Of a stretch of 64,000 nt of DNA, positions 4,119-59,073 are shown piece by piece. The DNA lies in assembly GCA_029778565.1 (NCBI GenBank), contig JAKOQC010000249.1:45611-109610 (forward strand), given 5' to 3'. A model generated the notes under the pieces. It was not told the origin of the DNA and did not search any database. It was given only the letters and a program-made list of their open reading frames with translations. Position 1 is the stretch's first letter; each line of letters begins with the position of its first letter. The stretch is from a bacterium (GTDB lineage Bacteria > Patescibacteriota > Saccharimonadia > CAILAD01 > BJGX01). The translations under genes and the position numbers were made by a program.

Positions 4119-4141
4119 AAACACCTGCCAGGTGTTTTTTG
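4119..4141 (+). terminator. intrinsic terminator after tRNA-Val
   Basis: ACACC-TGCCA-GGTGT hairpin followed by T6. Confidence 0.5.
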
Positions 4142-4149
4142 TTATAATA

Positions 4150-10553: not shown

Positions 10554-11266
10554 GAAAACTACGAATTTTACACCTATATCCTGATAGGATGAACATTTAT
10601 GGTGATATGGGGAATATTATTTGCCTACAAAAACGTATGGACTGGTTTGGCTTAAAGCATGAATATATTACCAACACTGTAAGTGAAAAGCTGAGTGGTA
10701 AGTTTGACCTTATTTTTATGGGAGGTGGGCAAGATAGGGGGCAGATAGCTGTAGGGAGTGATTTACAAACCAAACAAGCGATTATTAAAGATCATATTAA
10801 CTCTGGTGTACCAGCTTTGACTATCTGTGGTGGTTATCAGTTATTTGGTAAATACTTCCTTACAAAAGATTCGGGAAAAATAGAAGGAATAAGTGTGTTT
10901 GATGTTGTAACAAAAGCAACAGAATTGAGAATGATAGGTAATATCGTCTGTGTAAGTGACGAATTTGGTACAATTGTCGGGTTTGAGAATCATAGTGGCG
11001 CTACACAACTTGGTGATAGTGCTCAACCACTAGCTAAGGTAATAAAAGGCTATGGAAATGATGGTAAATCTGGTTTTGAGGGGGTAATTTATAAAAATGC
11101 CATTGGTAGCTATCTTCATGGCCCGCTCTTACCTAAAAATCCTTCTCTAGCAGACTTTCTTATTGGCACAGCGGCCCGAAATATTGATAAGCAATTTATA
11201 TTAAAAAACATTGACGATAGTGTAGCTATGCTAGCAAATAGTTATGCTCAAAAATTACCACAGTAG
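10544..11266 (+). CDS. gatD: glutamine amidotransferase GatD (CobB/CobQ-like), partner of MurT
   Basis: LRILHLYPDRMNIYGDMGNI, GGGQDRGQ and catalytic ICGGYQLFG Cys motif. Gene pairing with murT. Confidence 0.75.
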   Translation: MAMRKLRILHLYPDRMNIYGDMGNIICLQKRMDWFGLKHEYITNTVSEKLSGKFDLIFMGGGQDRGQIAVGSDLQTKQAIIKDHINSGVPALTICGGYQLFGKYFLTKDSGKIEGISVFDVVTKATELRMIGNIVCVSDEFGTIVGFENHSGATQLGDSAQPLAKVIKGYGNDGKSGFEGVIYKNAIGSYLHGPLLPKNPSLADFLIGTAARNIDKQFILKNIDDSVAMLANSYAQKLPQ

Positions 11267-15521: not shown

Positions 15522-15598
15522 CGGGGTGTGGCGCAGTTGGCTAGCGCGTACGGCTGGGGGCCGTGAGGTCGGCAGTTCGAGTCTGCTCACCCCGACCA
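15522..15598 (+). tRNA. tRNA-Pro (anticodon GGG)
   Basis: Acceptor CGGGGTG/CACCCCG, D arm GCGC-AGTTGGCTA-GCGC, anticodon stem TACGG/CCGTG with loop CTGGGGG (U33, GGG, G37), T loop TTCGAGT, encoded CCA. An extended -10 (TGgTATAAT) lies at 15505-15513. Confidence 0.8.
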
Positions 15599-17599: not shown

Positions 17600-18064
17600 G
17601 TGAGTTAGCGCACAATCGCTCGTTTTTTACGAGAGGAAAGTCCGAACAGCACAGAGTACAGTAGTTGCTAACGGCAACCTAGGGTAACCTACGGGAAAGT
17701 GCCGCAGAAACTATACCGCCCCTCACCATATCACTTGAGTTACGAGTGATATGGTGAGGGGTAAGGGTGAAAAGAGTGTCCTCGCTTGCGAGGAGTAAGT
17801 TTTAATCACACAGTGATCAATATTTACAGGTAAGAGCTCACAATCTTAGTTGGTGACAATTAAGAGTTGGTAAACCCTGCTGGCTGCAAGATTAATGGAT
17901 CCTTCTACATATTGTAGACAAGTTACTCGCTTGAGAAATAGGATATATCGCATGATCCCACGCCATCTGATGGTGCGGGACGCCCGGAAACGGGAAGATA
18001 GATGATTGTGGTCTCTCACTATGCAATGGTGAGAGATACAGAATTCGGCTTATAACTAACTCAC
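17600..18064 (+). ncRNA. rnpB: RNase P RNA (bacterial type)
   Basis: P4 strands GAGAGGAAAGUCCGAAC (17631-) and ACAGAAUUCGGCUUAUAA (18036-) with compensatory pairing CCGAA/UUCGG. P1 GUGAGUUAG (17600-17608) pairs with CUAACUCAC (18056-18064). No ORF on either strand. Confidence 0.85.
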
Positions 18065-18068
18065 ACCA

Positions 18069-33351: not shown

Positions 33352-33751
33352 GGGGCTGTATTAGCTTTGACATATGGAACTTTGAAAAATATTCGCAAGC
33401 CGGGCCGGAATGCACGTTAGCCGTTCCAAAACACTTTAAGTGCCAATACACTTATTAGCAAGGTAAAGGCTGCTTTTGCAGCTCCTAGCCTTGCGCCAGC
33501 ATTTGCCTAATACGCTATGCCGCTTACTACCCAGACACCAGATAGGGTAACAAGCGTCGATTATCTGGATGCGGTCTTACCACCTCTCTGGGCGAGATCT
33601 AAGTAAAAATAAAGAGAGCAAGCAACTTGAGCGCTCTTGTCGGTTTTTTACACTCTTGGGGCTTGTAAAATCCCTTTAGAATCGACTATGCTTGAAGACG
33701 ATATTTTTTCAAACCGTATGGACGCGGGGGCAGAACCCGCCAGCTCCACCA
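33352..33751 (+). ncRNA. ssrA: tmRNA (SsrA)
   Basis: 5' GGGGCUG pairs with 3' CAGCUCC-A-CCA including the G3.U70 alanine identity pair. 3' end GGACGCGGG...CCCGCCAGCUCCACCA is near-identical to canonical tmRNA. TTGACA-17 nt-TAAAAT promoter at 33313-33341. No ORF. Candidate tag reading frame ...AAFAAPSLAPAFA-UAA at about 33453-33497. T loop (GGCAGAA) is atypical. Confidence 0.75.
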
Positions 33752-33993: not shown

Positions 33994-36900
33994 TTATGTG
34001 TGGTGGTTTTTCTTATCTGTAACGTAGAGGATATAAGCCAAAAGAGAGGCAAGAAGCAATATGCCAATAATGGATGACCACCAGATGAAGATATAAGTTC
34101 GATTAGGATTGTTATTGCGTGTCCTGCCAGTGTTATCTGGGTTGTTATTATTGCTATCGACTATTGTAACAGTGCCTTCAATAGTGCCAGCTGGATGCAA
34201 TACATATCCATTCGTGTTATCTGTTACTGTTTTGGTAGTCGGGCTTACTGGGCTTGGTGTAGGAGGAATTGGCGTATCTTGGAATGTCCAGTATGTGTTG
34301 CCACCACTGTTTATACTGTCGTAAGCAATCATTACAGACGCATTAATATTATTGCTATCACTTACATCTAGATACTGCAAAGTACGGCTGCCTTGCGCAT
34401 CTATTTGCCAAGGAGTACCCGGAGAAGAAGATACGAGTGTGAGTAGTTCTGTAGCGGAGCCGCCTTTTAGGATGAGATCTCCCAGTATGGTCTCGGTACC
34501 ACCAGCAGGGAAGGTGAGAGTATCGGCCGAGGCTACAATTTTGGTTAGGTTATTAAAGGTAGTGCCCATAATAATCTGGTTGCTGCCATCGAGGATTACT
34601 GTTCCGCCATTAGCATTAAAGGTAGAGCCAGTATTGATAGTAAAGTTACCGCCTACAGTCATGTTGGCACTCGTTGCAGTAAAAGTACCATTATTAATAA
34701 CACTAAAGTTACTATTTATATCTAGCGTGTTATATGTGCCAAGGTTAAGATCGGTGCCATCGATAACAAGATTATTAGCGTTTAGGCCTGTAAAACCATT
34801 GAGAGAATTAGAAGAATCAATCTGTAGTATCCCCGATAAATCGTTAAGCGTTCCTGTACCAGAGAAGGTACCAAAAACATAGAGAGAATCTGTATTGCCC
34901 ATGACTATTACTGGATTGTTACCTAGTGGAAAAATACAGTCTGAGCCGACCGAAAAGTAACCCGCCGATTTATTGAACGTTACTAAATTAATGACCGCAT
35001 TGCCACAGAATGCATTCTGATCTTTAGCACCATAAAAAGTAATAGTACCACCGTTAGCATCAAAGGTAGCACCATTATAATTGACAGTAAAATCGCCACC
35101 TATCGACATTACCCCGGCTGGTGCAGTAAAGCTAGAAAAGCTACCCTGAGAAAAATTTGTAAAAATATCAACCGAAGAGAAGTTACTAAAGTCCACGCTA
35201 ACATTAGCTGCAATAAATACACTCCCGCCAACCAATAAGCTATCAAAGCCGGTTAAAGCGTTGGCAGAGCCAATAGTAAGCAGAGAAGCAGAACTAAGAA
35301 AACTTAGTGTACCAGTACCATTGAAGTTACCATTGAGAATAATATCACCAGAATTTGTAAATGTAGGATTATTACCCAACTCAAAACTACAATCAGAATT
35401 GAAAGTTTTTGTGCCAGTATTGGTAAACCTAACCTGATTAAATGTTGCCCCGCCACAGATTATTGTAGCTGTACCATCACTAAACTCAGTGGTGCCCCCA
35501 TTGGCATTAAAAGTAGCGGCCGGGTTGATTGTTAATGCTTTCTGAAAATACATTGTGCCCGTAGGTGCAATGAAAGTGCCAGAATTTATTGTAACCGTAG
35601 AAGGAAAGTTAACACCAGTCACCGGCACAGTAACACTACCTCCTGTCTGGGTGTATGTTCCAGTTAGACTAAACGTTAAGAAACTACTAAAGTCGAGTGT
35701 CGCGTTAACCTCTGCAAATGAACCCGCTGACAGGCCCGAAAACCCAGACAACGATCCGGCACTATTGATTGTCAGGAGGTTTCCGGTAGCTGCCGAGGCT
35801 ATGGTGAGTGTGCCGCTACCAGAGAGTGTACCGTTTAGGATGAAATCTGTGGTCGTACCACTGCCAATAGTTGGGTTATTGCCAAGTGGCAAGCTACAAT
35901 CGCTACCAATAGTTTTTACACCAGCTGTATTAGTAAATGTCACCAAATTAAACACAGCACTATTACATGCAATAGATGCCGTAGTTGTACCGTTAAAATT
36001 TACTGTTCCACCATTTGCTGTAAAGCTACCTGCCGTAATACTGAATGCACCACCTATAGACATCGTTCCACCTGGGGCCGTAAACGATCCCGAACTCATG
36101 CTAAATGCTGTACTAATGGTAAAGGGAGTGTAGCTCCCAGCATTAAAACTACCTCCGGCAATTGTAAGATTCGCTACAGAGAGCCCCGTAAACCCGGATA
36201 GACTAGAGCCGCTATTGAGGGTAAGGGTGCCGGCAGACTGTGTTAGGGTGCCCGTCCCAGACAGCGTGCCGTTTAGCACAACCCCTTGTGCAATAGTCGG
36301 ATTGTTACCAAGCGGTAATGTACAAGTACTATTGACTGTCTTAGCTGCAGTGTTATTGAAAGTTACCAGATTAAACGTTACACTTCCACAACTAAGAGTT
36401 GACGTTGAGCCGGTAATGTTAACTGTGCCACCATTCGCATTGAAGGTAAGCCCAGCTGTGAAGTTCAGACCTGAAGCACTAAGGGTTCCGGACGGAGCTG
36501 TGAATACAGATGTTGCACCTAACGAAAAGCTTCCAGTCACAGCAAAAGTGGTATAGCTGCCAGCATTTAAAGTACCGTTGATTGTTACATTACTTCCTGA
36601 GTTTATACCCGAGAATCCGGAAAGAGTACCCGTTGTGCCCAATATGAATGTTCCTGTTGTAATAGAGAGTGTGCCGCTGCCAGAAAGTGTACCATTTACA
36701 GTAATGGCATTGGTAATAGCGGGGCTGCTCCCTACCGGAATAGTGCACCCAGAACTAATTGTTTTTAGGCCCGTATTGGTAAAGGTTGCCGTATTGAGTG
36801 AAATACCATTACAAGCTATTGTTGCGGCACCACCTGAGAAGTTGACCGTACCGCTGTTGTGGTTAAAGGTCGGAGTGCCCGTTACTGTAACAGCGCCACT

Positions 36901-37320
36901 AATAGATGTTGTGCCAGAACTCGCAGTGAATGTCCCACCAGAGAGCGTAAAGGCCGCCATCGTGAATGACTGATTGGATGCAGTAAAACTCCCAGTAGCC
37001 TGCGAAAATGTGGTTGTAGTTGCGAAGGTGCGAGCTAAGGTGATTGTGCCAGTATACCCAGCAGCAATGGTTAATGTGGCCACACTTGCTGGCGCACCGG
37101 CATCTATCGTCGAATTCTTGGTCGACGTTGCATTAAAGGTAACCGTATCGCCAGCTATCGGACAGGTATCGGTAGTCCAGTTTGCACAGGTACTCCAGTT
37201 ATTATCAGCCCCACCACCATCCCAGGTGAGAGAAGCGGCGTGAGCGTGCAGGGGGTTAGCAAACAGAGATAAGAGGCTCGTAAACACTAAAAGAACCACT
37301 ACAGAGTAAGTAAGTAGCAA
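33994..37320 (-). CDS. giant (1108 aa) secreted, C-terminally membrane-anchored repeat protein, Thr/Gly/Asn/Ser-rich beta-helix-like; putative surface adhesin
   Basis: Signal peptide MLLTYSVVVLLVFTSLLSLFANPLHAHA. About 8 degenerate ~110-aa repeats (FNANGGTVN...C...FNLVTFNNT...S.C.LPLGNNPTI...LNGTLSGSGTL). Pro/Thr linker PPTPSPVSPTTKT, then C-terminal TM IFIWWSSIIGILLLASLLAYILYV plus KKNHHT. Confidence 0.6.
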   Translation of the reverse strand: MLLTYSVVVLLVFTSLLSLFANPLHAHAASLTWDGGGADNNWSTCANWTTDTCPIAGDTVTFNATSTKNSTIDAGAPASVATLTIAAGYTGTITLARTFATTTTFSQATGSFTASNQSFTMAAFTLSGGTFTASSGTTSISGAVTVTGTPTFNHNSGTVNFSGGAATIACNGISLNTATFTNTGLKTISSGCTIPVGSSPAITNAITVNGTLSGSGTLSITTGTFILGTTGTLSGFSGINSGSNVTINGTLNAGSYTTFAVTGSFSLGATSVFTAPSGTLSASGLNFTAGLTFNANGGTVNITGSTSTLSCGSVTFNLVTFNNTAAKTVNSTCTLPLGNNPTIAQGVVLNGTLSGTGTLTQSAGTLTLNSGSSLSGFTGLSVANLTIAGGSFNAGSYTPFTISTAFSMSSGSFTAPGGTMSIGGAFSITAGSFTANGGTVNFNGTTTASIACNSAVFNLVTFTNTAGVKTIGSDCSLPLGNNPTIGSGTTTDFILNGTLSGSGTLTIASAATGNLLTINSAGSLSGFSGLSAGSFAEVNATLDFSSFLTFSLTGTYTQTGGSVTVPVTGVNFPSTVTINSGTFIAPTGTMYFQKALTINPAATFNANGGTTEFSDGTATIICGGATFNQVRFTNTGTKTFNSDCSFELGNNPTFTNSGDIILNGNFNGTGTLSFLSSASLLTIGSANALTGFDSLLVGGSVFIAANVSVDFSNFSSVDIFTNFSQGSFSSFTAPAGVMSIGGDFTVNYNGATFDANGGTITFYGAKDQNAFCGNAVINLVTFNKSAGYFSVGSDCIFPLGNNPVIVMGNTDSLYVFGTFSGTGTLNDLSGILQIDSSNSLNGFTGLNANNLVIDGTDLNLGTYNTLDINSNFSVINNGTFTATSANMTVGGNFTINTGSTFNANGGTVILDGSNQIIMGTTFNNLTKIVASADTLTFPAGGTETILGDLILKGGSATELLTLVSSSPGTPWQIDAQGSRTLQYLDVSDSNNINASVMIAYDSINSGGNTYWTFQDTPIPPTPSPVSPTTKTVTDNTNGYVLHPAGTIEGTVTIVDSNNNNPDNTGRTRNNNPNRTYIFIWWSSIIGILLLASLLAYILYVTDKKNHHT

Positions 37321-40958: not shown

Positions 40959-42914
40959 TTAAATGGGCAGGCTAAAAAGCCCATCCTTACTAACAAAGTA
41001 GAGCAGGTTATTTTTCTCATCGACAGTAAAATTGGTAATATTAGTTGTGTTATTTACAACTAACTGCTTTTGAAATACCGCGCTATTACCCTGGATAGTT
41101 AACAACGTAAACGAATTGTTACTGCTGTCGAGTAAGAAAAGCGATTCTGGAGAAGAACGGTAGCCAAGCTGTATGACATTATCAAGAGACGGTATACCGG
41201 TAGTGGTAAAGCTTTGGGCTGTATTCTGGCTATATTGGCGAATATTACCTGACTTATTTGTAGTATATATTGTGTTTCCCACAACAAAGCTAACAGCATC
41301 CTTTAGGCTCGGATCGTTTGTCTTTAAGTAATTTGTTTGTGGGCCAAACTGATTACTGCCAACAGAGCGAAAACGGTAAATTTGGCCAGCGGACGGCATT
41401 AAAAAGTAGAGATTGCCAGCATAGGTGGCGGTGGCTTGTGCGCTGGGCCAGAAACTTGCACTCGTACGTGCTTCTGTGACGGTTAAATCTGGTTTAACTG
41501 AGAACACCGATGACTGGGTCAGGGCATAGGTAAGAGGAGAGTCTGTCGATGAAACGAGCCATTTGCTATCAACTAAGCTGGTTTGGGTTTTATTTGTTGT
41601 CTTGTTAGAGCTAGTAATGTAGCCTAGAAGCCTACCAGTAGCTGGATTTAACAAATTGAGTTGTGTTGAAGTGCCGGTTAACAGAGAATACGAAAAGTTG
41701 TTCTCACTAAAGGTTTTTGTGGCACTCACCCGAAAGATATTATGAATTTCATCGAGTTGAACTTGTGAGTATTGTGCAATCTCATCAAGCGTTGGTTGTT
41801 TATGGCCTGAGGCATACTTATTAAGTGTGGTTTTTTCGGTTGCACTAAGGCTAGATATTTCTTTTAGAACTTGGTTAAACTGTGCCTCTGAGTTACTTGT
41901 GTCTTGGTTGGTTTTGCTTGCTTGGGCATTTGTATACAGACCTTGAATCTTCTGATACTCTGTTGATGTTTTGCTATTACTACCAAAAATATTCCAAGCG
42001 ATAATACTAGCAATAATAATAGCTATCACTCCACCAATAATAAGTAATGCTCTCAGTGGGTTTGGATTAATATACGTACTCCATAGCTTTGTCCAGAGTG
42101 ATTGTAAACGATGTGTAATGGCTCTTACTGGTTTTGTTTTGTGAGTATGGGTACTAGGTTGGCTTTGAGTAGTTTTCTTGGAGATGATACGCGATTTAAC
42201 AATCCTGTAGTGTCGTTTAATATTGTGGTGAGCTTTGGCAATAATTCCAGTAGAAGCAAGTACGGGCAACTTGCCAAGAGGTGACTGAGATTGAGTGTCA
42301 AAGTTAATGATTAGGTTAAACCAAGCAGATTCAACGCGACCATGGGTAGTCAAATGTACTGAATAGGCTATTTCTTCTAAGCTATTTGATTTTGGGTTAT
42401 TACTGCTTTCGGCGAGGGTAATAAAAAGATGTTTTAAATCTTTGTGTGATCCAGAAATAATTTCTGAAAACTCAAGAAATTCTTCTGGCGTATAAACCTC
42501 GTGTAGGCGATGTGAGCTGTCTTCGGCAATAATATAGCCTTCACCACAGGCCGAGACGAGAAACTCGCTCTCAGTAATAGTAATGATGCAAATACTATAC
42601 TCGTATTCTTGTCGGTGGTCTTTGTAGTAGTGTCGAATTTCTTCCATACCTGTGTTAATGGCACGAATAGACCGACTAAAGCGCTTAAAATTGTCATCTT
42701 CAATTTCTGCGCGGTAATAATGATCTTCAAAACTTACAATGGCACGTTCGAATACTTGCTGATGCACTTCTCCAGGAATATATGCCAGAAAGAACGTTTC
42801 GCCGTAATGATTGTTATTAGAGTGAGAGTTTAAGACTTGGAAGTGAAAGTTGGCTGCTGTTGGCAAACCTTTTGCGGGAGAGGCTGTCTTATATGTACAT
42901 AACTCTCTTTCCAT
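40959..42914 (-). CDS. hypothetical bitopic membrane protein (N-terminal cytoplasmic domain, central TM, ~350-aa Ser/Thr/Asn-rich extracytoplasmic domain)
   Basis: TM helix LRALLIIGGVIAIIIASIIAWNIF near residue 290. No family recognised. Confidence 0.3.
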   Translation of the reverse strand: MERELCTYKTASPAKGLPTAANFHFQVLNSHSNNNHYGETFFLAYIPGEVHQQVFERAIVSFEDHYYRAEIEDDNFKRFSRSIRAINTGMEEIRHYYKDHRQEYEYSICIITITESEFLVSACGEGYIIAEDSSHRLHEVYTPEEFLEFSEIISGSHKDLKHLFITLAESSNNPKSNSLEEIAYSVHLTTHGRVESAWFNLIINFDTQSQSPLGKLPVLASTGIIAKAHHNIKRHYRIVKSRIISKKTTQSQPSTHTHKTKPVRAITHRLQSLWTKLWSTYINPNPLRALLIIGGVIAIIIASIIAWNIFGSNSKTSTEYQKIQGLYTNAQASKTNQDTSNSEAQFNQVLKEISSLSATEKTTLNKYASGHKQPTLDEIAQYSQVQLDEIHNIFRVSATKTFSENNFSYSLLTGTSTQLNLLNPATGRLLGYITSSNKTTNKTQTSLVDSKWLVSSTDSPLTYALTQSSVFSVKPDLTVTEARTSASFWPSAQATATYAGNLYFLMPSAGQIYRFRSVGSNQFGPQTNYLKTNDPSLKDAVSFVVGNTIYTTNKSGNIRQYSQNTAQSFTTTGIPSLDNVIQLGYRSSPESLFLLDSSNNSFTLLTIQGNSAVFQKQLVVNNTTNITNFTVDEKNNLLYFVSKDGLFSLPI

Positions 42915-50319: not shown

Positions 50320-50718
50320 ATGCTTTCACAACGTTCTGTCATACTACTTTCTATATTTGGGCTCGTTTTTTCATTTATTATCTCTACTCTAGGGGTGGTA
50401 TATGCCTTATTTACGTATACGCCTGCTAAATTGGGTCCAGCGGGTATTACTTTTTGGTTTATTGGCATACTAATAAGTGTAGGAAGTGTTATAGCTTTGC
50501 TTGGTTTCTTGTGGAAGTTACGTCACGAAGAACATCGTTTGACCGCTGCAAAGGCACTTACTAGCTCTTTGCGTACAGGTTTCTTGGTGGGTTTTACGGT
50601 ATCGATTTTATTGGCTCTCTCGAGTTTGAGAAGCCTAAGTATTCGTGATATTATCTTATTTATTCTTGTAGTAGTGGTAATAGAAATCTATTTTCGTACC
50701 AGAAAGAAAAGAGTATGA
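50320..50718 (+). CDS. hypothetical membrane protein (3-4 TM)
   Basis: Hydrophobic ORF overlapping the pheS start by 4 nt. Confidence 0.3.
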   Translation: MLSQRSVILLSIFGLVFSFIISTLGVVYALFTYTPAKLGPAGITFWFIGILISVGSVIALLGFLWKLRHEEHRLTAAKALTSSLRTGFLVGFTVSILLALSSLRSLSIRDIILFILVVVVIEIYFRTRKKRV

Positions 50719-51701
50719 CCTCACAGAACGACATAATTAAGGCCCTAGAGGCTGATTTAGTGCAAGCGAGCAACGAGCATGCAATTGCGCAAGTTAAATC
50801 TAAATATCTTGGTAATAATAGTTTTATTTCTGAGCAACTTCGCTTGTTGCCAGGCTTAGCCCCAGAAGAAAAAGCCCAAAAGGGTAAAGAGCTGAATATT
50901 CTCAAAAACCAGATAGAACATGCAATTACCGAGGCACGCGAGCAGTTATTGTCATCACAGCAATTTCCAATAAAAGACATATCTCTGCCAGGGCAGAGAT
51001 TTAAGCAGCCCTATGGGCATATGCATCCTGCGAGTAGGGTGTTACAAGAAACCTATAAGATATTTTCAGATTTAGGCTTTGCGGTGGTAGATAGCGGCGA
51101 GATAGAGACTGATTGGTATAACTTTGAGGCTCTTAATATGCCCGAAACTCACCCGGCGCGTGAAATGCAAGACACATTTTATATAAAAAACAATGGCAAG
51201 TTAGATGTTTTGCCCCGTACGCACACGTCTGGAATGCAAGTACGGTTTATGGAGGCAAATAAACCGCCATTTAAAATTATTGTACCTGGCAGGGTGTTTC
51301 GGAATGAAGACGAAGACGTTACTCATATTTGGGCTTTTCATCAGATAGAAGGCCTGGTTGTGGGCGAGGGGGTATCGATGGCACAGCTAAAGGGAACATT
51401 GCTACATGTTGTGCAGGGAATTCTAGGGCCAGAGGCTGACATTCGTTTTCGGCCTAGCTACTTTCCGTACACCGAGCCATCTGTAGAGCTCGATTGTCGT
51501 TATAAGGGTCAGTGGTTAGAGTTGGGTGGAGCAGGAATGATTAACCCTGTAGTACTGCAAAATGGTGGTATAGACCCCGAAAAATATACTGGTTTTGCCT
51601 TTGGTTGGGGTGCTGAGCGAATCGCTGCTATTAAATATGGGCTCGATGATTTACGCGAGCTGTGGCGACCACGCTTTGAATTTTTGGAGCAATTTGTATG
51701 A
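50715..51701 (+). CDS. pheS: phenylalanyl-tRNA synthetase alpha subunit
   Basis: Class II motifs: HPARDMQDTFY-like (HPAREMQDTFYI), FRNEDEDVTHIWAFHQIEG, RFRPSYFPYTEPSVELD, GWGAERIA. Confidence 0.9.
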   Translation: MTSQNDIIKALEADLVQASNEHAIAQVKSKYLGNNSFISEQLRLLPGLAPEEKAQKGKELNILKNQIEHAITEAREQLLSSQQFPIKDISLPGQRFKQPYGHMHPASRVLQETYKIFSDLGFAVVDSGEIETDWYNFEALNMPETHPAREMQDTFYIKNNGKLDVLPRTHTSGMQVRFMEANKPPFKIIVPGRVFRNEDEDVTHIWAFHQIEGLVVGEGVSMAQLKGTLLHVVQGILGPEADIRFRPSYFPYTEPSVELDCRYKGQWLELGGAGMINPVVLQNGGIDPEKYTGFAFGWGAERIAAIKYGLDDLRELWRPRFEFLEQFV

Positions 51702-54481
51702 AAGTAAGTATACAATGGCTTAATAGCTATCTAAAAGAAAGACTTTCGACTAACGAAATAGTAGCCGCACTAGAACGCACCGAAGTTGAGATAGAAGAAG
51801 TTATTACACCACCAAAGCTAGATAAAAAAGTTATTACTGCCAAAGTGGTTAATGTAATAGACCATCCAAATGCTGATAAACTTAGGCTCGTTGATATTGA
51901 GTTTGGTAAAACAAAACGCCGGGTTGTATGTGGCGCGCCAAATGTTCGAAAAGGTTTGGTAGTGGCATATGCTCAGCCAGGCAGTGTGTTGCCAGAGGAT
52001 TTTGTTATTGGTGAGAGAGAAATTCGTGGTGAGAAATCGGCCGGCATGTTGGCCTCGGCGAAAGAGCTTGGCATGGGTAATGATCATAGTGGTATAGTAG
52101 AGCTCGACCCTGATCTCCCCCTTGGAATATCATTGTGCGACATAGAGAATATGGCCGATATTGTGGATGTTAAGACGCCAGCAAACCGATGGGATTTATT
52201 GTCGGTTTTGGGTTTGGCGCGCGAAATTTCTGCTAATTCTTCTAAAAATCAGGTTGTAGAACCAAAACGTGAGAAAATAGAATATAAAAACAGAGAAGTG
52301 GTGAAAGTCAAGGAAACTGGGGAGTGTGAACGATTTATTAGTGCGGTATTTAAAATTGATAGCAATGCAGAGACACCGGCTTGGATTGTGGAAAACTTAG
52401 AGGCGGCGGGGATGCGAGCTATACACCCCGTTGTAGATATTACTAACTTTGTCATGTTAGAGACTGGACAGCCTAGCCATGCGTATGACAGTAAAAAACT
52501 CAAGGGTGCTTTGCAAGTGCGTTTTGCCCGGGCCGGTGAACTCCTCTCTACTTTGGACGGGGTTGAAAGAAAACTGACAAAAGAAGATTTAGTTATTGCT
52601 GATAATTCCGGCGCAATTGGATTGGCGGGTGTAATGGGTGGAGCAAGTAGCGAAGTAAGCACTCAAACTCAAGAAATTGTACTAGAAGTTGCTAATTTTA
52701 ACAAAACCACTGTTCGTAGAAGTGCACTGCGCCATGGTTTGCGTTCTGAGGCGAGTACTCGATTTGAAAAAGGGCTACCTCTCCCTCTTCCCTGTTTCGC
52801 TTTTGAGCGAGCTGCGCAGTTACTTAAAGAAATTTGTAAGGCCGAACTTATTGGAGACGTAAATGATCAATTATATGCTTGGCCGTGGATTTCGTTTGTT
52901 GGTTTGCGTCAACGTCGCGCAGAAATGGTACTGGGTACAAAGCTGAATGAAAAAGAAATAATTGAAGGGTTGCGTGCGCGTGGGTTTAGTGCAGAACACT
53001 TTTCTCTTTCTGCCGAGGCTAAAAAACATCTTGGCAAGCCATATGTATATGGTGCTAGCTTTAAGAAAAACGGCGAAGAAGCTTTTGACTGTTCATATTT
53101 AGTAGAGAGAATATATTCAAAAATTGGGATTGCAATTGGCCATACTGCTCAGCAACAATTTAACTCTGGAAAGCCTGTCGAAAAAGATAATCTCAAACCT
53201 GGAGATTTAGTGTTTTATTCGGGTCATTGGGAAAAATTAGACGCCAAAAGCCGTGGCGATATTGGACATGTGGGGATGTATTTGGGTAAAAACCAAGTTA
53301 TTGAGGCAAGTGAATACGAGTTTGACACCAAAATTGGCAAGTATATAAAACGCAAAACTGCCGACGTACGCTATACTACGCTTGATAGTTATACGAGCAA
53401 TCCTACTTTTAAAGGTGCGCGACGGTATACTGAGAGCTTTAATCATATTATTGCTGTTGTTGCTCCCTGGTGGCGTACTGATATTGTAAAAGAAGTTGAT
53501 TTAATTGAAGAAGCCGCCAAAATATTGGGGTATGAAAATATGCCGAGCAAGTTGCCCGAATTACCGCCTATGGAAACGGCAGATCATCAAATGTTACCTG
53601 GATTAATGGGTATGCGCGAAGATTTAGTAGCTGCAGGATTATTTGAAGTAACTACGTATTCATTTGTTAGCGAGCAAGACTTGCTTGATACTCATATTGA
53701 TCCCACGAGTGTGTTGGCAATAGAAAACCCAATGAGCAAAGAACAGGCCTATTTACGTAACTCGCTTTTAAGTAGTCACCTACAGACAGTAGCTCGTAAT
53801 AATACATTCTATGAAAAAGAATATGGTTTTTTTGAGCTTGCTCGAATATACGAAAAATCTCCCCGCTCTAAAACATTAGCCCAAGAGAGCTGGCGACTAG
53901 CGATCTGTGCAGTTGGTAAAAACGGTCTCGAAAGGATAAAAAGTGTGCTCGATATGTGTGAAAGTCGCTACCAACTAAGGTTGGCGTACAAGCGCAGTGA
54001 AGAAGCCAATTTCTTACCCGGCCGAACAGCCACCCTACAGAGCCAGAGAATACCTGAAGTTAGGGGATTATATGGACAGGTTAAACCTATTTGTCTAAAA
54101 AAATTCTCAATTAGTGATGAGATAGTGTTTGCCGAAATTATATTGCCTGATCAGTCTATTTTTGCAGAAAGCACCCAAAAATCGGTGTCCCTTCTCCCCT
54201 ATCAGCTTGTTAGCCGCGACCTTACGCTCGAGTTACCCAATGAAGTTCTTTGGCAAAACATTGCATTGATTGTAAAATCGCAGAAACGTATATCTCGGGT
54301 GCAATTTCTACAGGAATTTGCCAGTGAAGAATTAACAAAAACAAATAAGAAACGGGTGAGTATGCGAATTTGGATTGATTGCGGGGCTAATCCTAGCCAA
54401 AAAGAGATAACAAAATATATGAGTGCTATAGAAAGTACCTTACTTGCTGACAAAACGCTAAAGCAAGTCAAAATAGTCTGA
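51698..54481 (+). CDS. pheT: phenylalanyl-tRNA synthetase beta subunit carrying a ~148-aa NlpC/P60 Cys-His hydrolase domain inserted in the B5 region
   Basis: B1, tRNA-binding (KVVNVIDHPNADKLRLVDIEFG) and B3/B4 editing domains, then B5...LGTKLNEKEIIEGLRARGF. Insert residues ~436-583 (GKPYVYGASFKKNGEEAFDCSYLVERIY...LKPGDLVFYSG...IGHVGMYLGKNQVIEAS). Then canonical B5/B6 resumes (IIAVVAPWWRTDIVKEVDLIEEAAKILGYENMP) through to the C-terminal anticodon-binding domain. Confidence 0.85.
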   Translation: MKVSIQWLNSYLKERLSTNEIVAALERTEVEIEEVITPPKLDKKVITAKVVNVIDHPNADKLRLVDIEFGKTKRRVVCGAPNVRKGLVVAYAQPGSVLPEDFVIGEREIRGEKSAGMLASAKELGMGNDHSGIVELDPDLPLGISLCDIENMADIVDVKTPANRWDLLSVLGLAREISANSSKNQVVEPKREKIEYKNREVVKVKETGECERFISAVFKIDSNAETPAWIVENLEAAGMRAIHPVVDITNFVMLETGQPSHAYDSKKLKGALQVRFARAGELLSTLDGVERKLTKEDLVIADNSGAIGLAGVMGGASSEVSTQTQEIVLEVANFNKTTVRRSALRHGLRSEASTRFEKGLPLPLPCFAFERAAQLLKEICKAELIGDVNDQLYAWPWISFVGLRQRRAEMVLGTKLNEKEIIEGLRARGFSAEHFSLSAEAKKHLGKPYVYGASFKKNGEEAFDCSYLVERIYSKIGIAIGHTAQQQFNSGKPVEKDNLKPGDLVFYSGHWEKLDAKSRGDIGHVGMYLGKNQVIEASEYEFDTKIGKYIKRKTADVRYTTLDSYTSNPTFKGARRYTESFNHIIAVVAPWWRTDIVKEVDLIEEAAKILGYENMPSKLPELPPMETADHQMLPGLMGMREDLVAAGLFEVTTYSFVSEQDLLDTHIDPTSVLAIENPMSKEQAYLRNSLLSSHLQTVARNNTFYEKEYGFFELARIYEKSPRSKTLAQESWRLAICAVGKNGLERIKSVLDMCESRYQLRLAYKRSEEANFLPGRTATLQSQRIPEVRGLYGQVKPICLKKFSISDEIVFAEIILPDQSIFAESTQKSVSLLPYQLVSRDLTLELPNEVLWQNIALIVKSQKRISRVQFLQEFASEELTKTNKKRVSMRIWIDCGANPSQKEITKYMSAIESTLLADKTLKQVKIV

Positions 54482-54536: not shown

Positions 54537-56039
54537 ATGCCAAAATCGCCAAAACCCGATAGTCAACCATATGCTCACCGCTTTGCACTACCAAAGTCGC
54601 TAAGTAAATCTGGGCAAAAACCAAGTATGCTGGCTCGAATGCAGTTTGTGGTTCTTGGTGCACTTTTGGCTTTTTTGTGTATTAACGGAGCTGTAGCCGC
54701 TGCGCTAACTGGCAGAATTTATCCTGGCGTATCTGTAGCCGGACACGATTTAAGCTTTAAAACTCGCGCCGAGGCGATGCAGACTTTACGGCAAATCCAA
54801 ACCAAGCGAAATTTTACCCTCAAAGTAGGTGATAAAGTATTTACTACTACTGATGCCGAGCTGGGATCGAATTACGATCTCATAACTACAGCCAATACTG
54901 CCTATAGTGTCGGCAAAAATGCAGCCTTGCCAGTTTTTGGTATCTTTACCAGTGAGCGAAATGGACAACTTGGTCTTGCATACAATTTAGATTTGGTAAA
55001 ACTAAAGGCTTTCACTTCTTCTGTGGTACAGTCGGTTGGCCACGATCCTATTAATGCCACATTGGTAATAAATGAAGGGGTAATAACTGATCAGCCCGAC
55101 CAAGATGGACTACGTATAGATCAAAAAGCACTTAATCAAATAATTCAGTCGGCACTTAGTGATGGCCAAGATGAAAATATTACCTTGCGACCAGAAGTGC
55201 AAAAAGCCGATATCCAAGTGGCCGATTTAGCACCGGCGCGAGCGAGCGCCGAAACTCTGTTGAGTAAACAAATAATACTATCCTATAATGGTAAAAATTT
55301 TGTGGCCGATAAAAACGCTATTGGTCATATGATAGTTTTTGAAGCTCAAGATGGAGCTGATGGTAAAAAACACTTGGTAGCCAAAATATCTCCAGAACAA
55401 GTTGCTGGCTATGTACAATCGGTTGCTAATCAAATAAACATTGCACCCAAAAACAAGATAATAACGGTAGCCAATGGCACTAGTTCGGTTACACAAGAAG
55501 GCGTAGATGGTTTGGCAGTTAATCAAGATCCGGCAATTAATGCAATTGTAGCCGGGCTCAATGCCAATCAGGATGTTAGTTTTAGTCTAACAGCTTCTCC
55601 AGTAGCGTTTAAGACGCAGACCAATGCTTTTGGTGGAATTGGTGGATTGGACTATCCGCAGTACATTGAGGTTTCTCTGCGCCAACAGCATTTGTGGGCT
55701 TGGCAAGATGGTCAAGTAATCTTTAATGCCCCAATTACCAGTGGTGCTACTGGTGCAGGTTTTGGAACAGTAACAGGGACCTTTGCGATTTATGCCAAAG
55801 AACGCAGTCGATATCTTAATGGTGCACAATATGGTTATAACTATAATGTTTTTGTTGATTACTGGATGCCATTTTATAACGGTTACGGATTGCATGATGC
55901 CGACAGGTGGCGCTCAAGCTATGGTGGCCAGGACTATTATTATGGTGGCAGCCATGGGTGCGTAAATATGTCAGGTAGTTCAGCGGCATTTTTATATGGT
56001 TGGGCACCGATTGGTACACCTGTTTGGGTGCATAGTTAA
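54537..56039 (+). CDS. L,D-transpeptidase (YkuD domain) with N-terminal membrane anchor
   Basis: C-terminal ...FYNGYGLHDADRW...GGSHGCVNMSGSSAAFLY has the YkuD catalytic His and SHGC(V/I)(N/R)M Cys motif. N-terminal TM LARMQFVVLGALLAFLCINGAV. Confidence 0.65.
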   Translation: MPKSPKPDSQPYAHRFALPKSLSKSGQKPSMLARMQFVVLGALLAFLCINGAVAAALTGRIYPGVSVAGHDLSFKTRAEAMQTLRQIQTKRNFTLKVGDKVFTTTDAELGSNYDLITTANTAYSVGKNAALPVFGIFTSERNGQLGLAYNLDLVKLKAFTSSVVQSVGHDPINATLVINEGVITDQPDQDGLRIDQKALNQIIQSALSDGQDENITLRPEVQKADIQVADLAPARASAETLLSKQIILSYNGKNFVADKNAIGHMIVFEAQDGADGKKHLVAKISPEQVAGYVQSVANQINIAPKNKIITVANGTSSVTQEGVDGLAVNQDPAINAIVAGLNANQDVSFSLTASPVAFKTQTNAFGGIGGLDYPQYIEVSLRQQHLWAWQDGQVIFNAPITSGATGAGFGTVTGTFAIYAKERSRYLNGAQYGYNYNVFVDYWMPFYNGYGLHDADRWRSSYGGQDYYYGGSHGCVNMSGSSAAFLYGWAPIGTPVWVHS

Positions 56040-56082
56040 GACAATATAGTCTCATATAAACATAACTGGTATAATAGGGTGT

Positions 56083-56541
56083 ATGGATCCCCAACAATCT
56101 CCTCCTAACCCAAATACTGTTCCTGCACCACAGCCAACAATCGAACAGATTGCTGCACAAAAAGGTGCTGCACCAAACCTACAACCATCCGCAGAGGCTA
56201 ATAATCCTGGGGTAGAAATTCAAAGCGGACAAGCAGAACTTGCACCTACGCCGAGTGTGGGCGCACCAGTTGCTAACACCCCATCAGCCGCAGTAGTAAG
56301 TACAAATACTCCTCCCCCGGCGCAAGTTGTGCATACTGGTAGTGTGCAAGGTCGTGCGCTACAAGCTCAAGACTTGGCAAATCTTTCAGCAAGTGATGAC
56401 GACCTAATAGAAAAAGAATGGGTAGATACTGTTGATAATGTGATTGAAAAAGATGAGGATGATCCCCTAACTGAGGATGTTGATCACAATACCGTGAGCC
56501 GAGCATATCAAAAGCAGCGATTTAATCTGGATGTCTCATAA
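56083..56541 (+). CDS. hypothetical Pro/Ala/Gln-rich acidic protein
   Basis: Low-complexity ORF directly upstream of the coupling-protein-like ATPase. Confidence 0.25.
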   Translation: MDPQQSPPNPNTVPAPQPTIEQIAAQKGAAPNLQPSAEANNPGVEIQSGQAELAPTPSVGAPVANTPSAAVVSTNTPPPAQVVHTGSVQGRALQAQDLANLSASDDDLIEKEWVDTVDNVIEKDEDDPLTEDVDHNTVSRAYQKQRFNLDVS

Positions 56542-56568
56542 ATTAAGAAATAACACCACCAGATATAT

Positions 56569-59073
56569 ATGAACCAATTTGTCATTTTTACTAGTATTTT
56601 GTTTCTGCTATTTGCCAGTGGTATATCTGTCTTAGCATATTTTTTGTTGCGCAAACGTGCACGGCATAGCAAAGATATTGAACGATCTCTGAAGATGGTA
56701 CCACTATTGGTCAAGCTTCCACCTCAAGAAGTAGGTGAAGATGGACGTGACAGCCGAGAGCTTATTAAAGAAAACATTGCCAAGGCTGAAGGTGTGTTTA
56801 ATTTATTAAGTGGTATAGCGACCGAAAAAGCTTCATATTATGGCAAAAAATACATTAGTTTAGAAATTATTGCTGAAGGAAAGTTGATTAACTTTTATAT
56901 TGTAGTACCCGTCAGTCTACTGAGTGCTGTGCAAAAAGCCCTAGTAGCCGGATATCCCAATGTACAGATAGAAACCGCCCAAGAAACAAATATATTTTCT
57001 GACAAAAGCAAAATAGCTGGTGTGCAGGGCGGTGAATTAGTCTTAGCTAAAGAAAGTATCTACCCTATTAATACCTACAAATCCACAGACTTCGACCCAT
57101 TGTCTGGTATACTCTCGGGACTAACCAACTTGGGCGATGGTGAGGGTGTGGGGATACAAATTCTTATTCGTCCGGCGGGAAGTGACTGGACTAAATATGC
57201 CCTAAAGCGTAGTAAAGAACATTTAGACCCGAGTAGCTCAGAAAATAAAGCCCTTAGTTTTGGCTCGGATGTATTGAAAGCACCATTTAAAGCACCAAGC
57301 TCGAGTGACAATGATAAAAAACCCGATAAACAACCCACTGCTATCGACCAGCGCAAGAGTGAGACAATCGAAGATAAGGCAAAATCGCCCGCTTTTGAAA
57401 CATGTATTCGTTTAATTGCTAGTTCTGACAATCCAGCACGTGCTCATGTAATGATTCAAGATTTACAACTTGGGTTTGCTCAACTCAGCCAGGGCGGCAG
57501 TAATGGTTTTAAATATCAAAGTGCTGATTCACCACAAGAAATTGCCACAAATTTTATTTTTAGATTCTTTCCTGTTGCCAAAAAGAAGAATGTATTGAAT
57601 GCGGTCGAACTCGCTACGATTTTTCATCTGCCAAGCGAGGTAATTGGTATTGCAACACAGCTCGAACGCAAAGCGGTAAAAGAAGTAGCTGCTCCAGCCG
57701 GTCTTCCTACGGAAGGCCTGAGAATTGGTGTAAACGAATATCGAGGGACAAACACACCGATCTATATTACCCAAGATGATAAGCGCCGCCACATTTACAC
57801 CATTGGTCAGACAGGAACAGGTAAATCAACCATGCTTACTAACTTAATGCTCCAAGATGCATATGCTGGTAAGGGTTTTTGTTTTATCGACCCAAATGGT
57901 GACGAGGCTGAGAAGTTTTTGGGACGAATTCCGGCTAATCGCGCTGAAGATGTCATTTACTTCAGTCCGGGAGATACAGAATTTCCTCTAGGGTTTAATA
58001 TTATGGAGTACGATCGTAATCACCCCGAACAGCGCGACTTCTTGGTGCAAGAAGCAATTTCAATGCTATATAAACTCTACGATCCGCAACATCAGGGTAT
58101 TATTGGCCCACGGTATGAACACTGGTTTCGAAATGCTGCTCTCACCGTTATGGCCGACCCAGAAGGTGGTACATTTATAGAAATACCAAAAGTATTTACT
58201 GACGATGAGTATTTAAAGAAGAAATTCAAATACGTTACCGACCCAACGGTGCAAGACTTTTGGACGGGTGAGATGGCTCAGACAGATGCACATTCTAAGA
58301 GTGAGATGCTAGGATGGTTTGTTTCAAAATTTGGTGCGTTTGCTAATAACGCCATGCTTCGCAATATTATTGGCCAGAAGACTTCAGCATTTAACTTCCG
58401 TCAGATAATGGATACCAATAAGATTTTGATTGCCAACCTCAGTAAAGGTTTGCTTGGTGAGTTGAATGCCAAATTGCTTGGTATGATATTTGTGATTAAG
58501 TTACAAATGGCAGCTATGAGTCGGGCCGATACACCCGAAGATCAGCGTGTAGATTTTGCTCTGTATGTCGATGAGTTTCAGAATATCGCTACCGATAGTT
58601 TTGCTACAATTCTTTCTGAAGCCAGAAAATATCACTTTAATCTTATTGTAGCCAACCAGTATATTGAACAAATTGATGAGCAAATTCGCGATGCGGTATT
58701 TGGTAATGTTGGTAGTATGATTATTTATCGAGTAGGTAATGATGACGCTGAGTATATTGCAAAACAATTCTCACCACAGTATGATGCCAGCGATATCGCC
58801 AATATCCCTAATCACTACGCTGCTGCTAAGATTATTGCTGATGGTATTCCCACAACCCCATTTAGTTTGCATGGTGACCCGCCGGTTGATGGAAATGTTA
58901 TTAATACTAATTTGCAGAATGCTATGCGCGATCTTTCTCGAGCTAAATACGGACGACCAAAAGCAGAGGTTGATGCTGAAATTGCTCGGAGCCTGAGTGA
59001 CAGTTTACCCACCGAACCAGCGGGTGGCGACGCAGCTGCTGGTGGTATGGGTACAGAACAGACTGGAAATTAA
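56569..59073 (+). CDS. VirD4/TraG/TraD-family type IV coupling-protein-like ATPase (N-terminal TM anchor)
   Basis: N-terminal TM. Walker A IGQTGTGKSTML, Walker B FALYVDEFQNIA. C-terminal IVANQYIEQIDEQIRDAVFGNVGSMIIYRVGNDDAEYIAKQF matches the TraG-D_C pattern (Qs..QL...yG..a..i.gN....i.f...d..tA). Confidence 0.55.
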   Translation: MNQFVIFTSILFLLFASGISVLAYFLLRKRARHSKDIERSLKMVPLLVKLPPQEVGEDGRDSRELIKENIAKAEGVFNLLSGIATEKASYYGKKYISLEIIAEGKLINFYIVVPVSLLSAVQKALVAGYPNVQIETAQETNIFSDKSKIAGVQGGELVLAKESIYPINTYKSTDFDPLSGILSGLTNLGDGEGVGIQILIRPAGSDWTKYALKRSKEHLDPSSSENKALSFGSDVLKAPFKAPSSSDNDKKPDKQPTAIDQRKSETIEDKAKSPAFETCIRLIASSDNPARAHVMIQDLQLGFAQLSQGGSNGFKYQSADSPQEIATNFIFRFFPVAKKKNVLNAVELATIFHLPSEVIGIATQLERKAVKEVAAPAGLPTEGLRIGVNEYRGTNTPIYITQDDKRRHIYTIGQTGTGKSTMLTNLMLQDAYAGKGFCFIDPNGDEAEKFLGRIPANRAEDVIYFSPGDTEFPLGFNIMEYDRNHPEQRDFLVQEAISMLYKLYDPQHQGIIGPRYEHWFRNAALTVMADPEGGTFIEIPKVFTDDEYLKKKFKYVTDPTVQDFWTGEMAQTDAHSKSEMLGWFVSKFGAFANNAMLRNIIGQKTSAFNFRQIMDTNKILIANLSKGLLGELNAKLLGMIFVIKLQMAAMSRADTPEDQRVDFALYVDEFQNIATDSFATILSEARKYHFNLIVANQYIEQIDEQIRDAVFGNVGSMIIYRVGNDDAEYIAKQFSPQYDASDIANIPNHYAAAKIIADGIPTTPFSLHGDPPVDGNVINTNLQNAMRDLSRAKYGRPKAEVDAEIARSLSDSLPTEPAGGDAAAGGMGTEQTGN

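Follow-up and report, generated by a model that had tools for sequence, protein, structure and literature searches.

In the window analysed here, a 64-kb stretch of DNA covering ca. 8% of the genome (positions 45,611 to 109,610 of contig JAKOQC010000249.1), the gene pheT, encoding the beta subunit of phenylalanyl-tRNA synthetase (PheRS), was found to carry an NlpC/P60 domain nested within its B5 domain. This fusion is real and ancient, and was inherited vertically through a large clade of Saccharibacteria type. Judging from its residues, the inserted domain is a complete, canonical and non-permuted member of the NlpC/P60 family (MEROPS C40) with a Cys465-His524-Glu536 triad, and it is apparently active. 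Its substrate is predicted from conserved pocket residues, and we give about an even chance to the reading that PheRS carries here a second, independent cytoplasmic gamma-D-glutamyl peptide hydrolase. The initial annotation of this DNA had described a PheT of 927 amino acids (aa) with an NlpC/P60 domain inside B5; Pfam, NCBIfam, alignment to solved structures and a structural model all bore this out, as well as the coordinates, motifs and size proposed for the extra segment. The two PheRS genes and the regions of PheT are as follows (window coordinates).

50715..51701, + strand: pheS, PheRS alpha subunit, 328 aa (Pfam tRNA-synt_2d, 296.6 bits; Phe_tRNA-synt_N, 49.1 bits)
51698..54481, + strand: pheT, encoding the PheRS beta subunit in which the peptidase is nested, 927 aa, an uninterrupted open reading frame (ORF)
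51830..52129, + strand: B2/tRNA_bind (OB-fold) domain, aa 45-144 (PF01588, 62.4 bits)
52325..52840, + strand: B3/B4 editing domain, aa 210-381 (PF03483, 196.3 bits)
52880..52987, + strand: N-terminal half of B5, aa 395-430, with a strand, two helices and the first strand of the hairpin (model and alignment to solved PheT)
52988..53455, + strand: insert, aa 431-586, made of linker SAEHFS, the NlpC/P60 (C40) domain and linker ESFNHIIA, in place of the B5 beta-hairpin turn
53006..53431, + strand: catalytic core of NlpC/P60, aa 437-578, reaching from the helix that precedes GKPY as far as the GARRY strand at the C-terminal end (alignments to solved enzymes)
53456..53542, + strand: C-terminal half of B5, aa 587-615, with the second strand of the hairpin, the PWWRxD motif and a helix (PF03484, 50.3 bits)
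53543..54139, + strand: B6/B7 catalytic-like module (CLM), aa 616-814 (PF17759 tRNA_synthFbeta, 110.7 bits)
54200..54430, + strand: divergent B8 domain for anticodon binding (FDX-ACB), aa 835-911 (PF03147, 22.4 bits for a cut-off of 31.1, which is not reached)

The position of the insert was defined by alignment to solved PheRS beta chains (E. coli-type numbering), in which window residue 430 stands opposite residue 435 and residue 587 opposite residue 446, with ca. 156 residues in the window PheT where other bacteria have ca. 10. The boundaries initially proposed, EGLRARGF on one side and IIAVVAPWWRTDI on the other, match this alignment. At the hairpin, relatives devoid of the insert read lgf/EVKKGKTELV/itvPtwR, and the window protein GF/SAEHFS-(domain)-GARRYTESFNHIIA/VVAPWWR. 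A full-length AlphaFold2 model of PheT, built on 117 homologs, has a mean predicted local distance difference test score (pLDDT) of 91.5, with values of ca. 90-96 over the insert, and is confident across both junctions. In this model, B5 comprises a strand (399-404), two helices (405-412 and 418-427) and a further strand (431-434), after which the chain leaves the domain, to return beyond the peptidase as strand 584-589; the peptidase domain therefore takes the place of the hairpin turn, or "wing", of B5. The Pfam B5 profile (PF03484) was matched only at its positions 37-67, corresponding to aa 582-612. In the Protein Data Bank (PDB), the full-length model finds its best fold matches in PheRS beta chains from bacteria, 775-836 aa long and all lacking the insert.

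Two short motifs at the junctions, His-Phe-Ser (aa 434-436, nt 52997-53005) and Asn-His (aa 582-583, nt 53441-53446), are nearly invariant among the sampled members of the HFS (Saccharibacteria) type. They persist where catalytic residues are gone, and are absent from subfamily B (see below) and from relatives of the 'EKFD…LDD' type. They may serve the packing of the two hairpin strands, or something else.

Apart from the insert, the host synthetase looks fully functional, on the evidence of its domain content and residues. The stop codon of pheS and the start codon of pheT overlap by 4 nt (gtATGAaa), and pheT is translationally coupled to pheS. The NCBIfam model TIGR00472 (pheT_bact) matched the 927-aa protein with 565.7 bits (cut-off 402.65), its match being split in two stretches. 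The tRNA_bind, B3_4, B5 and tRNA_synthFbeta domains all scored above their Pfam thresholds, and the FDX-ACB region displays the expected ferredoxin-like pattern of strands and helices with high confidence in the model despite its sub-threshold score. The B3/B4 editing domain, which the initial annotation had also reported, was recovered with its key residues: alignment to 7n8y_B revealed Thr249, Asn250, His261 (E. coli betaH265), Gly314 (betaG318) and Glu330 (betaE334). In T. thermophilus numbering, Thr249, Asn250, His261, Gly314/315 and Glu330 of the window correspond to Thr249, Asn250, His261, Gly315 and Glu334. The roles of these residues in PheRS editing have been described for T. thermophilus (Thr249, Asn250, His261) and E. 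coli (H265, G318, E334) (PMC3275996). All of them are invariant or conserved in at least 90% of the 117 homologs, and the possibility that the insert substitutes for a decayed editing site was ruled out on this ground. No second pheT was found in the window.

Evidence for the identity of the inserted domain came from profiles, alignments and fold. The assignment to NlpC/P60, originally made from motifs, was upheld by Pfam NLPC_P60 (PF00877), which matched aa 446-541 with 65.2 bits in the whole protein (E-value 6e-18) and 69.7 bits with the insert alone, for a cut-off of 23; the best NCBIfam similarities of the insert are to p60, RipC, RipA/B and MepS. Cys465 (nt 53090-53092) aligns with the catalytic Cys (FDCSG) of the solved NlpC/P60 enzymes 8v3w_H, 9ubf_A, 7cfl_A, 4xcm_A and 4hpe_A, His524 (nt 53267-53269) with their catalytic His (HVGIY), and Glu536 (nt 53303-53305) with the third-residue His of solved enzymes ("HA" motif), so that the Cys, the His and the third polar residue had been rightly identified from the start. 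In the model, helix 465-474 begins at Cys465 and strand 524-530 at His524. The third position is the most variable: in the 98 homologs with an intact Cys/His pair it is occupied by Gln (37), His (20), Glu (19), Met (12) or Thr (10), and the 22 of these with Met or Thr have a dyad only.

An AlphaFold2 model of the insert alone (pLDDT 89.5, predicted TM-score 0.86) returned 63 Foldseek matches in the PDB at E ≤ 0.001, the best 50 of which are all NlpC/P60-family proteins, with target-normalised TM-scores of up to 0.86 and root-mean-square deviations of 2.1-2.5 Å. These include the diffocin hub-hydrolase, Acd24020 and Acd33800 of C. difficile, CwlT-like proteins, YkfC, MepS, LytE, CwlO, SagA and RipA/B. 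No sign of the circular permutation of LRAT-like proteins (YaeF/YiiX, C92) was found, Cys465 preceding His524 and the best 50 matches of the fold search being all non-permuted. A partial match to PF05708 (profile positions 84-127) reached 25.4 bits with the whole protein, below the cut-off of 27, and 31.2 bits with the insert alone. Homology to the editing folds of aminoacyl-tRNA synthetases (B3/B4, YbaK/INS, CP1, AlaX/N2) was not detected, since Pfam, NCBIfam, PDB sequence and fold searches yielded only NlpC/P60-type proteins for the insert.

The predicted substrate rests on the S1 site. In BcYkfC, the site that binds gamma-D-Glu is formed by Tyr226, Trp228, Asp237, Ser239 and a small residue at position 257, and family members having these residues together with the triad most likely bind X-L-Ala-gamma-D-Glu (PMC2954226). 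The equivalents in the window are Tyr449, Tyr451, Asp464, Ser466 and Ala484. Among the 98 homologs with an intact Cys/His pair, Tyr449 and Asp464 are found in all (98/98 each), position 466 is Ser in 91 and Gly in 7, position 484 is Ala, Cys, Ser or Thr in all 98, and position 451 is more variable (Trp 62, Tyr 21, Leu 9, Phe 4, Met 2). Cys465, His524, Asp464 and Tyr449 are thus invariant in sequences that are otherwise only 41-88% identical. The position of the YkfC-specific Asp256 is taken by Thr483 in the window, and by Thr in 79/98 relatives, and Pfam found no SH3b domain in PheT; on account of these two features, the insert does not belong to the YkfC subfamily, although it may work in a similar way.

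A search with the whole protein returned 120 clusters with 41-100% identity, all having the insert at the same spot and, where named, all Candidatus Saccharibacteria; the closest genome record is a Candidatus Saccharibacteria metagenome-assembled genome. Some more distant matches are PheTs from elsewhere in the Patescibacteria, which carry the domain at this very hairpin; one cluster is named Parcubacteria group bacterium. When the insert alone was searched against 1.84 billion representatives, ca. 30 representatives of PheT length were found; beyond these, only ordinary free-standing NlpC/P60 proteins appeared, with no more than ca. 53% identity, the closest free-standing domains being ca. 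45-53% identical to the insert. In a set of 263 PheTs, an insert of 100 aa or more is present in 158 and absent from the other 105.

The neighbor-joining tree of the PheT core has one clade in which all members carry the insert (n = 130) and eight small insert-bearing groups scattered among insert-less PheTs of Patescibacteria. In a neighbor-joining tree of 172 peptidase domains, the embedded domains all come together with P0250 as the sole exception, a grouping with moderate support (at most two exceptions in 29 of 50 bootstrap replicates). They fall into two well-supported subfamilies: A, the Saccharibacteria type, and B, the Parcubacteria type, which has the canonical Arg and a His as third residue. 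Few residues are common to both subfamilies yet rare elsewhere. A single ancient insertion, followed by losses and perhaps by transfers, is likely and explains the pattern most economically; as an alternative, the B5 hairpin may conceivably have received the domain twice.

Several members depart from the common architecture. P0250 (198 aa) consists of a stand-alone NlpC/P60 domain of subfamily-B type followed by the C-terminal half of B5 (…FVIEIPHDRLDLRSKENLIKEL), and is PheT-derived; it may represent a pheT that was split or truncated, or else a domain set free from PheT. Two subfamily-B PheTs of 831-838 aa, P0200 (locus L004, 2019-4535) and P0219, have the peptidase insert and lack the N-terminal B1/B2 (tRNA_bind) module. 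A 134-aa ORF lying between pheS and pheT in L004, devoid of recognisable homology, was considered as the missing module and rejected. The core of P0145 (973 aa) groups with the Parcubacteria type, near P0196 and the insert-less P0272, and its insert is of Saccharibacteria type, with P0150 and P0154 as nearest relatives; this incongruence suggests that an insert-bearing segment may have been recombined or transferred.

How selection acts on the insert was assessed at two scales. Compared with a 91%-identical relative (L001), the ratio of non-synonymous to synonymous substitution rates (dN/dS) amounts to 0.063 for the insert as a whole and to 0.056 for its peptidase core, against 0.067 for B3/B4 and 0.078 for the whole gene; purifying selection on the insert is as strong as that on the editing domain. 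In the main clade, the catalytic Cys and/or His was lost in 22 of the 130 clusters, through 4-8 independent events according to parsimony, and the resulting degenerate inserts are mostly shortened to 107-136 aa. Mean pairwise identity was compared by PheT region between intact and degenerate groups. For the insert it is 0.52 in the intact and 0.375 in the degenerate group; the other domains remain conserved, the corresponding values being 0.54 and 0.64 for B1/B2, 0.60 and 0.63 for B3/B4, 0.37 and 0.48 for CLM, and 0.32 and 0.375 for B8.

In P0399 (783 aa), a plain short hairpin stands in place of the insert. This protein is the closest relative (64% identity) of P0116, the most eroded form with an insert of 107 aa; it is 50-53% identical to proteins with an intact insert and only 31-33% identical to insert-less Patescibacteria PheTs, and its gene lies in the same pheS-pheT-YkuD order. 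These comparisons point to the deletion of an insert that was formerly present, and the relatives together display a series leading from intact to inactivated, eroded and finally deleted domains. Since the domain erodes after loss of Cys and His and was deleted once, it is dispensable for PheRS and, elsewhere, retained for its own catalysis. Structural entrenchment of the insert, which seemed likely as long as no insert-less member of the main clade was found, was rejected in view of the clean deletion in P0399.

That the architecture might be an artefact has a negligible probability, whether it is put down to chimeric assembly, to two genes fused by a frameshift or to a selfish element (intein-like or transposon-borne) that was inserted recently and has no function. 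Besides the unusual architecture itself, the one feature suggesting it is an imperfect 18-nt direct repeat (14/18) flanking the insert, the best flanking repeat seen. This repeat falls on the family-wide GARRY motif and on the variable end of a B5 helix, and is not kept in relatives; such flanking repeats being short and imperfect, they were judged to result from chance and not to be the footprint of a mobile element. Misassembly, which the initial annotation had raised as a caveat, was ruled out by the continuous reading frame, the absence of any break in GC content across the insert, the low dN/dS (0.06) and the more than 150 clusters with the same architecture, which span four data sources (NCBI, JGI, ENA and Logan) and contigs of up to 651 kb; the model, too, is confident at the junctions. 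Because the same architecture recurs in well over 100 independent clusters from separate assemblies, chance and chimeric assembly are excluded.

The gene following pheT encodes a wall-active enzyme:

54537..56039, + strand: PG_binding_4 + YkuD L,D-transpeptidase, 500 aa, downstream neighbour of pheT (Pfam)

The same YkuD neighbour was found in loci L005, L006, L007 and L008. The order pheS, pheT, PG_binding_4/YkuD, a small ORF (ca. 120-150 aa) and a protein of ca. 810-830 aa (DUF8128/type IV secretion system ATPase-like) is kept across Saccharibacteria (window 54537-59073), among relatives only 43-47% identical in PheT and whether their insert is intact, dead or deleted. It was not found in subfamily B loci. 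As this synteny is independent of the state of the insert and lacking in subfamily B, the adjacency was interpreted as a kept gene order and rejected as evidence of a functional link.

More broadly, the window encodes sugar transferases. It also encodes an MraY-type transferase, MurT/GatD, UppP and the L,D-transpeptidase, and on this gene content the organism makes peptidoglycan with gamma-D-Glu/Gln stems. The genes for MurT (Mur ligase middle domain + MurT_C) and GatD (GATase_3) overlap and lie at 9168-11266. The MurT/GatD pair amidates the D-iso-Glu of lipid II to D-iso-Gln; because it is present, the organism's own stem peptides probably carry iso-Gln, which could bear on the preference of the embedded peptidase. 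No second NlpC/P60 gene was found among the window ORFs of at least 200 aa. Four large ORFs in the window had no Pfam-A match at the thresholds used: 33994-37320 (-, 1108 aa), 40959-42914 (-, 651 aa), 4132-5943 (+, 603 aa) and 56569-59073 (+, 834 aa). Among the RNA genes, the RNase P RNA match (17600-18068) covers 469 nt for a model of 367 positions, implying sizeable insertions; the tmRNA (33352-33751) was matched by Rfam and not by ARAGORN, and a tRNA-Pro(GGG) (15522-15598) was matched by ARAGORN and stayed below the Rfam gathering score.

As to function, the initial annotation had listed three kinds of role without choosing between them: an additional proofreading activity, a cell-wall or self-lysis function, and a regulatory module. 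The hydrolysis of cell-wall peptides is now the best supported of these, whereas extra proofreading and a structural or regulatory role are disfavoured and self-lysis is unlikely. Under the favoured reading of a cytoplasmic gamma-D-glutamyl peptide hydrolase, the thiol amidase would cleave the bond between gamma-D-Glu and the diamino acid of soluble peptidoglycan-derived peptides via an acyl-Cys465 intermediate, and D-Glu, the diamino acid and L-Ala would be recovered or scavenged from wall fragments of the cell itself or of its host. Saccharibacteria live as epibionts on other bacteria and are amino-acid auxotrophs, unable to make most amino acids. Aminoacylation and peptide hydrolysis would probably be uncoupled mechanistically, PheRS serving mainly as a scaffold that is abundant, is expressed constitutively and offers a surface loop permissive to insertion. 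A cytoplasmic NlpC/P60 peptidase acting in cell-wall peptide recycling is known from another bacterium with a reduced genome, in the form of chlamydial YkfC (PMC9928106).

Several points weigh against this reading. Three positions are derived in the Saccharibacteria subfamily: His replaces the equivalent of the conserved Arg255 in 77/98 sequences, Tyr stands two residues after the catalytic Cys where most free-standing domains have Gly, and the third triad residue is variable, being Met or Thr in 22/98; for this reason, the specificity of the peptidase may have shifted. The features that confine YkfC to free tripeptides are absent, and UDP-MurNAc-peptide precursors might then be open to an attack that would be harmful unless controlled. 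Muropeptide import or recycling genes are not obvious among the ORFs of at least 200 aa in the window. Finally, the choice of PheRS as host, the sparing of cytoplasmic wall precursors and the derived changes in the pocket are not explained by it.

Alternatively, the insert may be a mainly non-catalytic domain, either a sensor of a ligand such as a muropeptide that tunes PheRS, a protein-protein docking module or a filler that has become structurally entrenched in the B5 hairpin. More than 20 clusters still have degenerate versions, which lack Cys or His and keep the junction motifs HFS (434-436) and NH (582-583) as well as G-x-R-R-Y, and non-catalytic NlpC/P60 proteins such as RipD (4jxb) are among the fold matches. 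However, the invariance of Cys465, His524, Asp464 and Tyr449 in all 98 intact sequences argues for catalysis, and once the catalytic residues are lost the domain decays, with a shrinking insert, an identity lowered to 0.375 and a final deletion in P0399, which is the pattern of a lost enzymatic function and makes a structural or regulatory role unlikely. A further reading, suggested by the location within an aminoacyl-tRNA synthetase, has the thiol hydrolase act on a substrate of translation, where it would perform an extra cis- or trans-editing of mischarged or modified aminoacyl-tRNAPhe, or an LRAT-like transfer of the phenylalanyl group to an acceptor via Cys465. Other synthetases did gain inserted hydrolytic editing domains, permuted LRAT-like enzymes of the NlpC/P60 superfamily are able to handle esters via an acyl-Cys, and the derived pocket (Arg to His; Tyr at Cys+2) leaves room for another substrate. 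Yet nothing is missing from the canonical editing site, which does not vary between relatives with an intact insert, a degenerate one or none. Conservation of the gamma-D-Glu S1 signature throughout the intact sequences (100%) would not be expected for an alpha-aminoacyl ester substrate, and subfamily B is wholly canonical, having kept the Arg and the third His. Moreover, neither the 4-8 losses of the catalytic pair nor the one deletion of the domain went along with a visible compensating change in PheT, the editing residues included, and the best fold matches are peptidoglycan endopeptidases and not permuted acyltransferases. Extra proofreading is for these reasons disfavoured, and action on a translation substrate as a whole is distinctly unlikely.

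A bolder reading is that the C40 domain was recruited to translation-linked reactions not known from any synthetase: a thiol-dependent site would hydrolyse or transfer, by way of a Cys465 thioester, the acyl group of (mis)acylated or N-blocked tRNAPhe, or the module would sense or cleave wall peptides and thereby set the rate of Phe-tRNA charging; we regard this as a long shot. Still more improbable is a peptidase working outside the cell, on the wall of the cell itself or of its host, after lysis or unconventional export, as a moonlighting autolysin or a means of attack. Its closest relatives in structure and sequence are indeed secreted autolysins and hydrolases of phages and contractile systems, Saccharibacteria are epibiotic on other bacteria, and a wall-active L,D-transpeptidase is the conserved downstream neighbour. 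Against this, the N-terminus of PheT aligns from residue 1 with cytoplasmic PheT, so that a signal peptide would have no place there, the domain lies within a 927-aa subunit of a cytoplasmic alpha2beta2 enzyme, and Pfam found PheT domains only besides NLPC_P60, with no wall-targeting partner. The YkuD neighbour, for its part, is equally kept with a dead or missing insert and is absent in subfamily B loci. Self-lysis is unlikely because the protein is without an export signal.

The initial annotation had held the fusion to be undescribed, and our search agrees: no description or discussion of a PheRS-NlpC/P60 architecture was found in the full-text literature, subscription-only papers lying outside this search, and a paper on the M. 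tuberculosis PheRS-tRNA complex does not mention B5. In automated annotation, some members appear as "C40 family peptidase, partial" or "phenylalanine--tRNA ligase beta subunit-related protein". Both protein families, and the gain of domains by synthetases, were already known; what appears undescribed is that a synthetase should house a peptidoglycan peptidase of papain-like type. Few enzymes are as conserved as the aminoacyl-tRNA synthetases, and lineage-specific domain gains have repeatedly pointed to new biology in editing, signalling and regulation. Here, host-dependent bacteria forming an entire group of phylum level, to which relatives of the human oral Saccharibacteria belong, have an apparently active peptidase in an essential synthetase. 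If the domain is an independent gamma-D-Glu peptidase, it would supply a missing step in the recycling or scavenging of wall peptides by amino-acid auxotrophs, and offer a striking case in which an accessory enzyme is carried by an essential protein. Should it touch tRNA or regulate charging instead, it would represent a new class of synthetase accessory domain, and if the module couples wall turnover to protein synthesis, it would do so in epibiotic ultra-small bacteria. In any case, the insert provides a clean phylogenetic marker, a natural series for the study of nested-domain gain and loss, and a possible lineage-specific target for covalent inhibitors of cysteine proteases.

Inserted or appended editing domains are known from several aminoacyl-tRNA synthetases, including B3/B4 of PheRS, the INS/YbaK-like domain of bacterial ProRS, CP1 of Leu-, Ile- and ValRS, and the N2 domain of ThrRS with the AlaRS editing domain. 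The PheT insert resembles them as a hydrolase nested in or fused to a synthetase, an accretion that may be lineage-specific or ancient, and, like INS of ProRS, it interrupts a pre-existing domain of a class II enzyme. However, these editing domains have unrelated folds, none being to our knowledge a papain-like thiol peptidase, and they act on aminoacyl-tRNA, whereas the pocket of the insert is of gamma-D-Glu type and B3/B4 is retained alongside. In glutathionylspermidine synthetase/amidase, a papain-like Cys/His amidase of the CHAP family, within the wider NlpC/P60-CHAP group, is fused end-to-end to an ATP-dependent ligase, both activities bearing on one metabolite. This enzyme likewise unites a thiol amidase and a ligase in one cytoplasmic polypeptide, with the differences that its ligase is not a tRNA synthetase and that no shared substrate is evident in PheT. 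The non-catalytic domains of RipD type (4jxb) recall the ca. 22 degenerate relatives, whereas the window domain keeps its catalytic residues; the degenerate PheT inserts, shrinking and in one case deleted, also fit poorly with conservation as binding modules in the manner of RipD.

With YkfC of Bacillus and Chlamydia (3h41; PMC2954226, PMC9928106), which acts on soluble peptides derived from the wall, the insert shares a cytoplasmic location and the S1 signature, and 3h41 is among both its sequence and fold matches. In contrast, YkfC stands alone, has two SH3b domains and selects a free N-terminal L-Ala by means of its Asp256/Tyr118 pair; the insert has neither these domains nor this pair. The closest likeness in fold is to the free-standing DL-endopeptidases, represented by Acd24020 (7cfl) and Acd33800 (9ubf) of C. 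difficile, CwlT-like proteins (4hpe/4fdy), LytE/CwlO of B. subtilis, MepS of E. coli and RipA/B of M. tuberculosis, with which the insert has in common the order of Cys and His, the S1 residues and the motifs GKPYxxG, FDCS, GDLxF, GHVGxY and GARR. The third triad residue is usually His in these enzymes, whereas it is Glu in the window and Gln, His, Met or Thr in its relatives, and their conserved Arg and the Gly at Cys+2 have mostly become His and Tyr in the embedded domains. The free-standing enzymes, either secreted or attached to the wall, combine the domain with signal peptides and with SH3b, LysM or coiled-coil modules, in contrast to the domain described here, which lies inside a subunit of a cytoplasmic synthetase.

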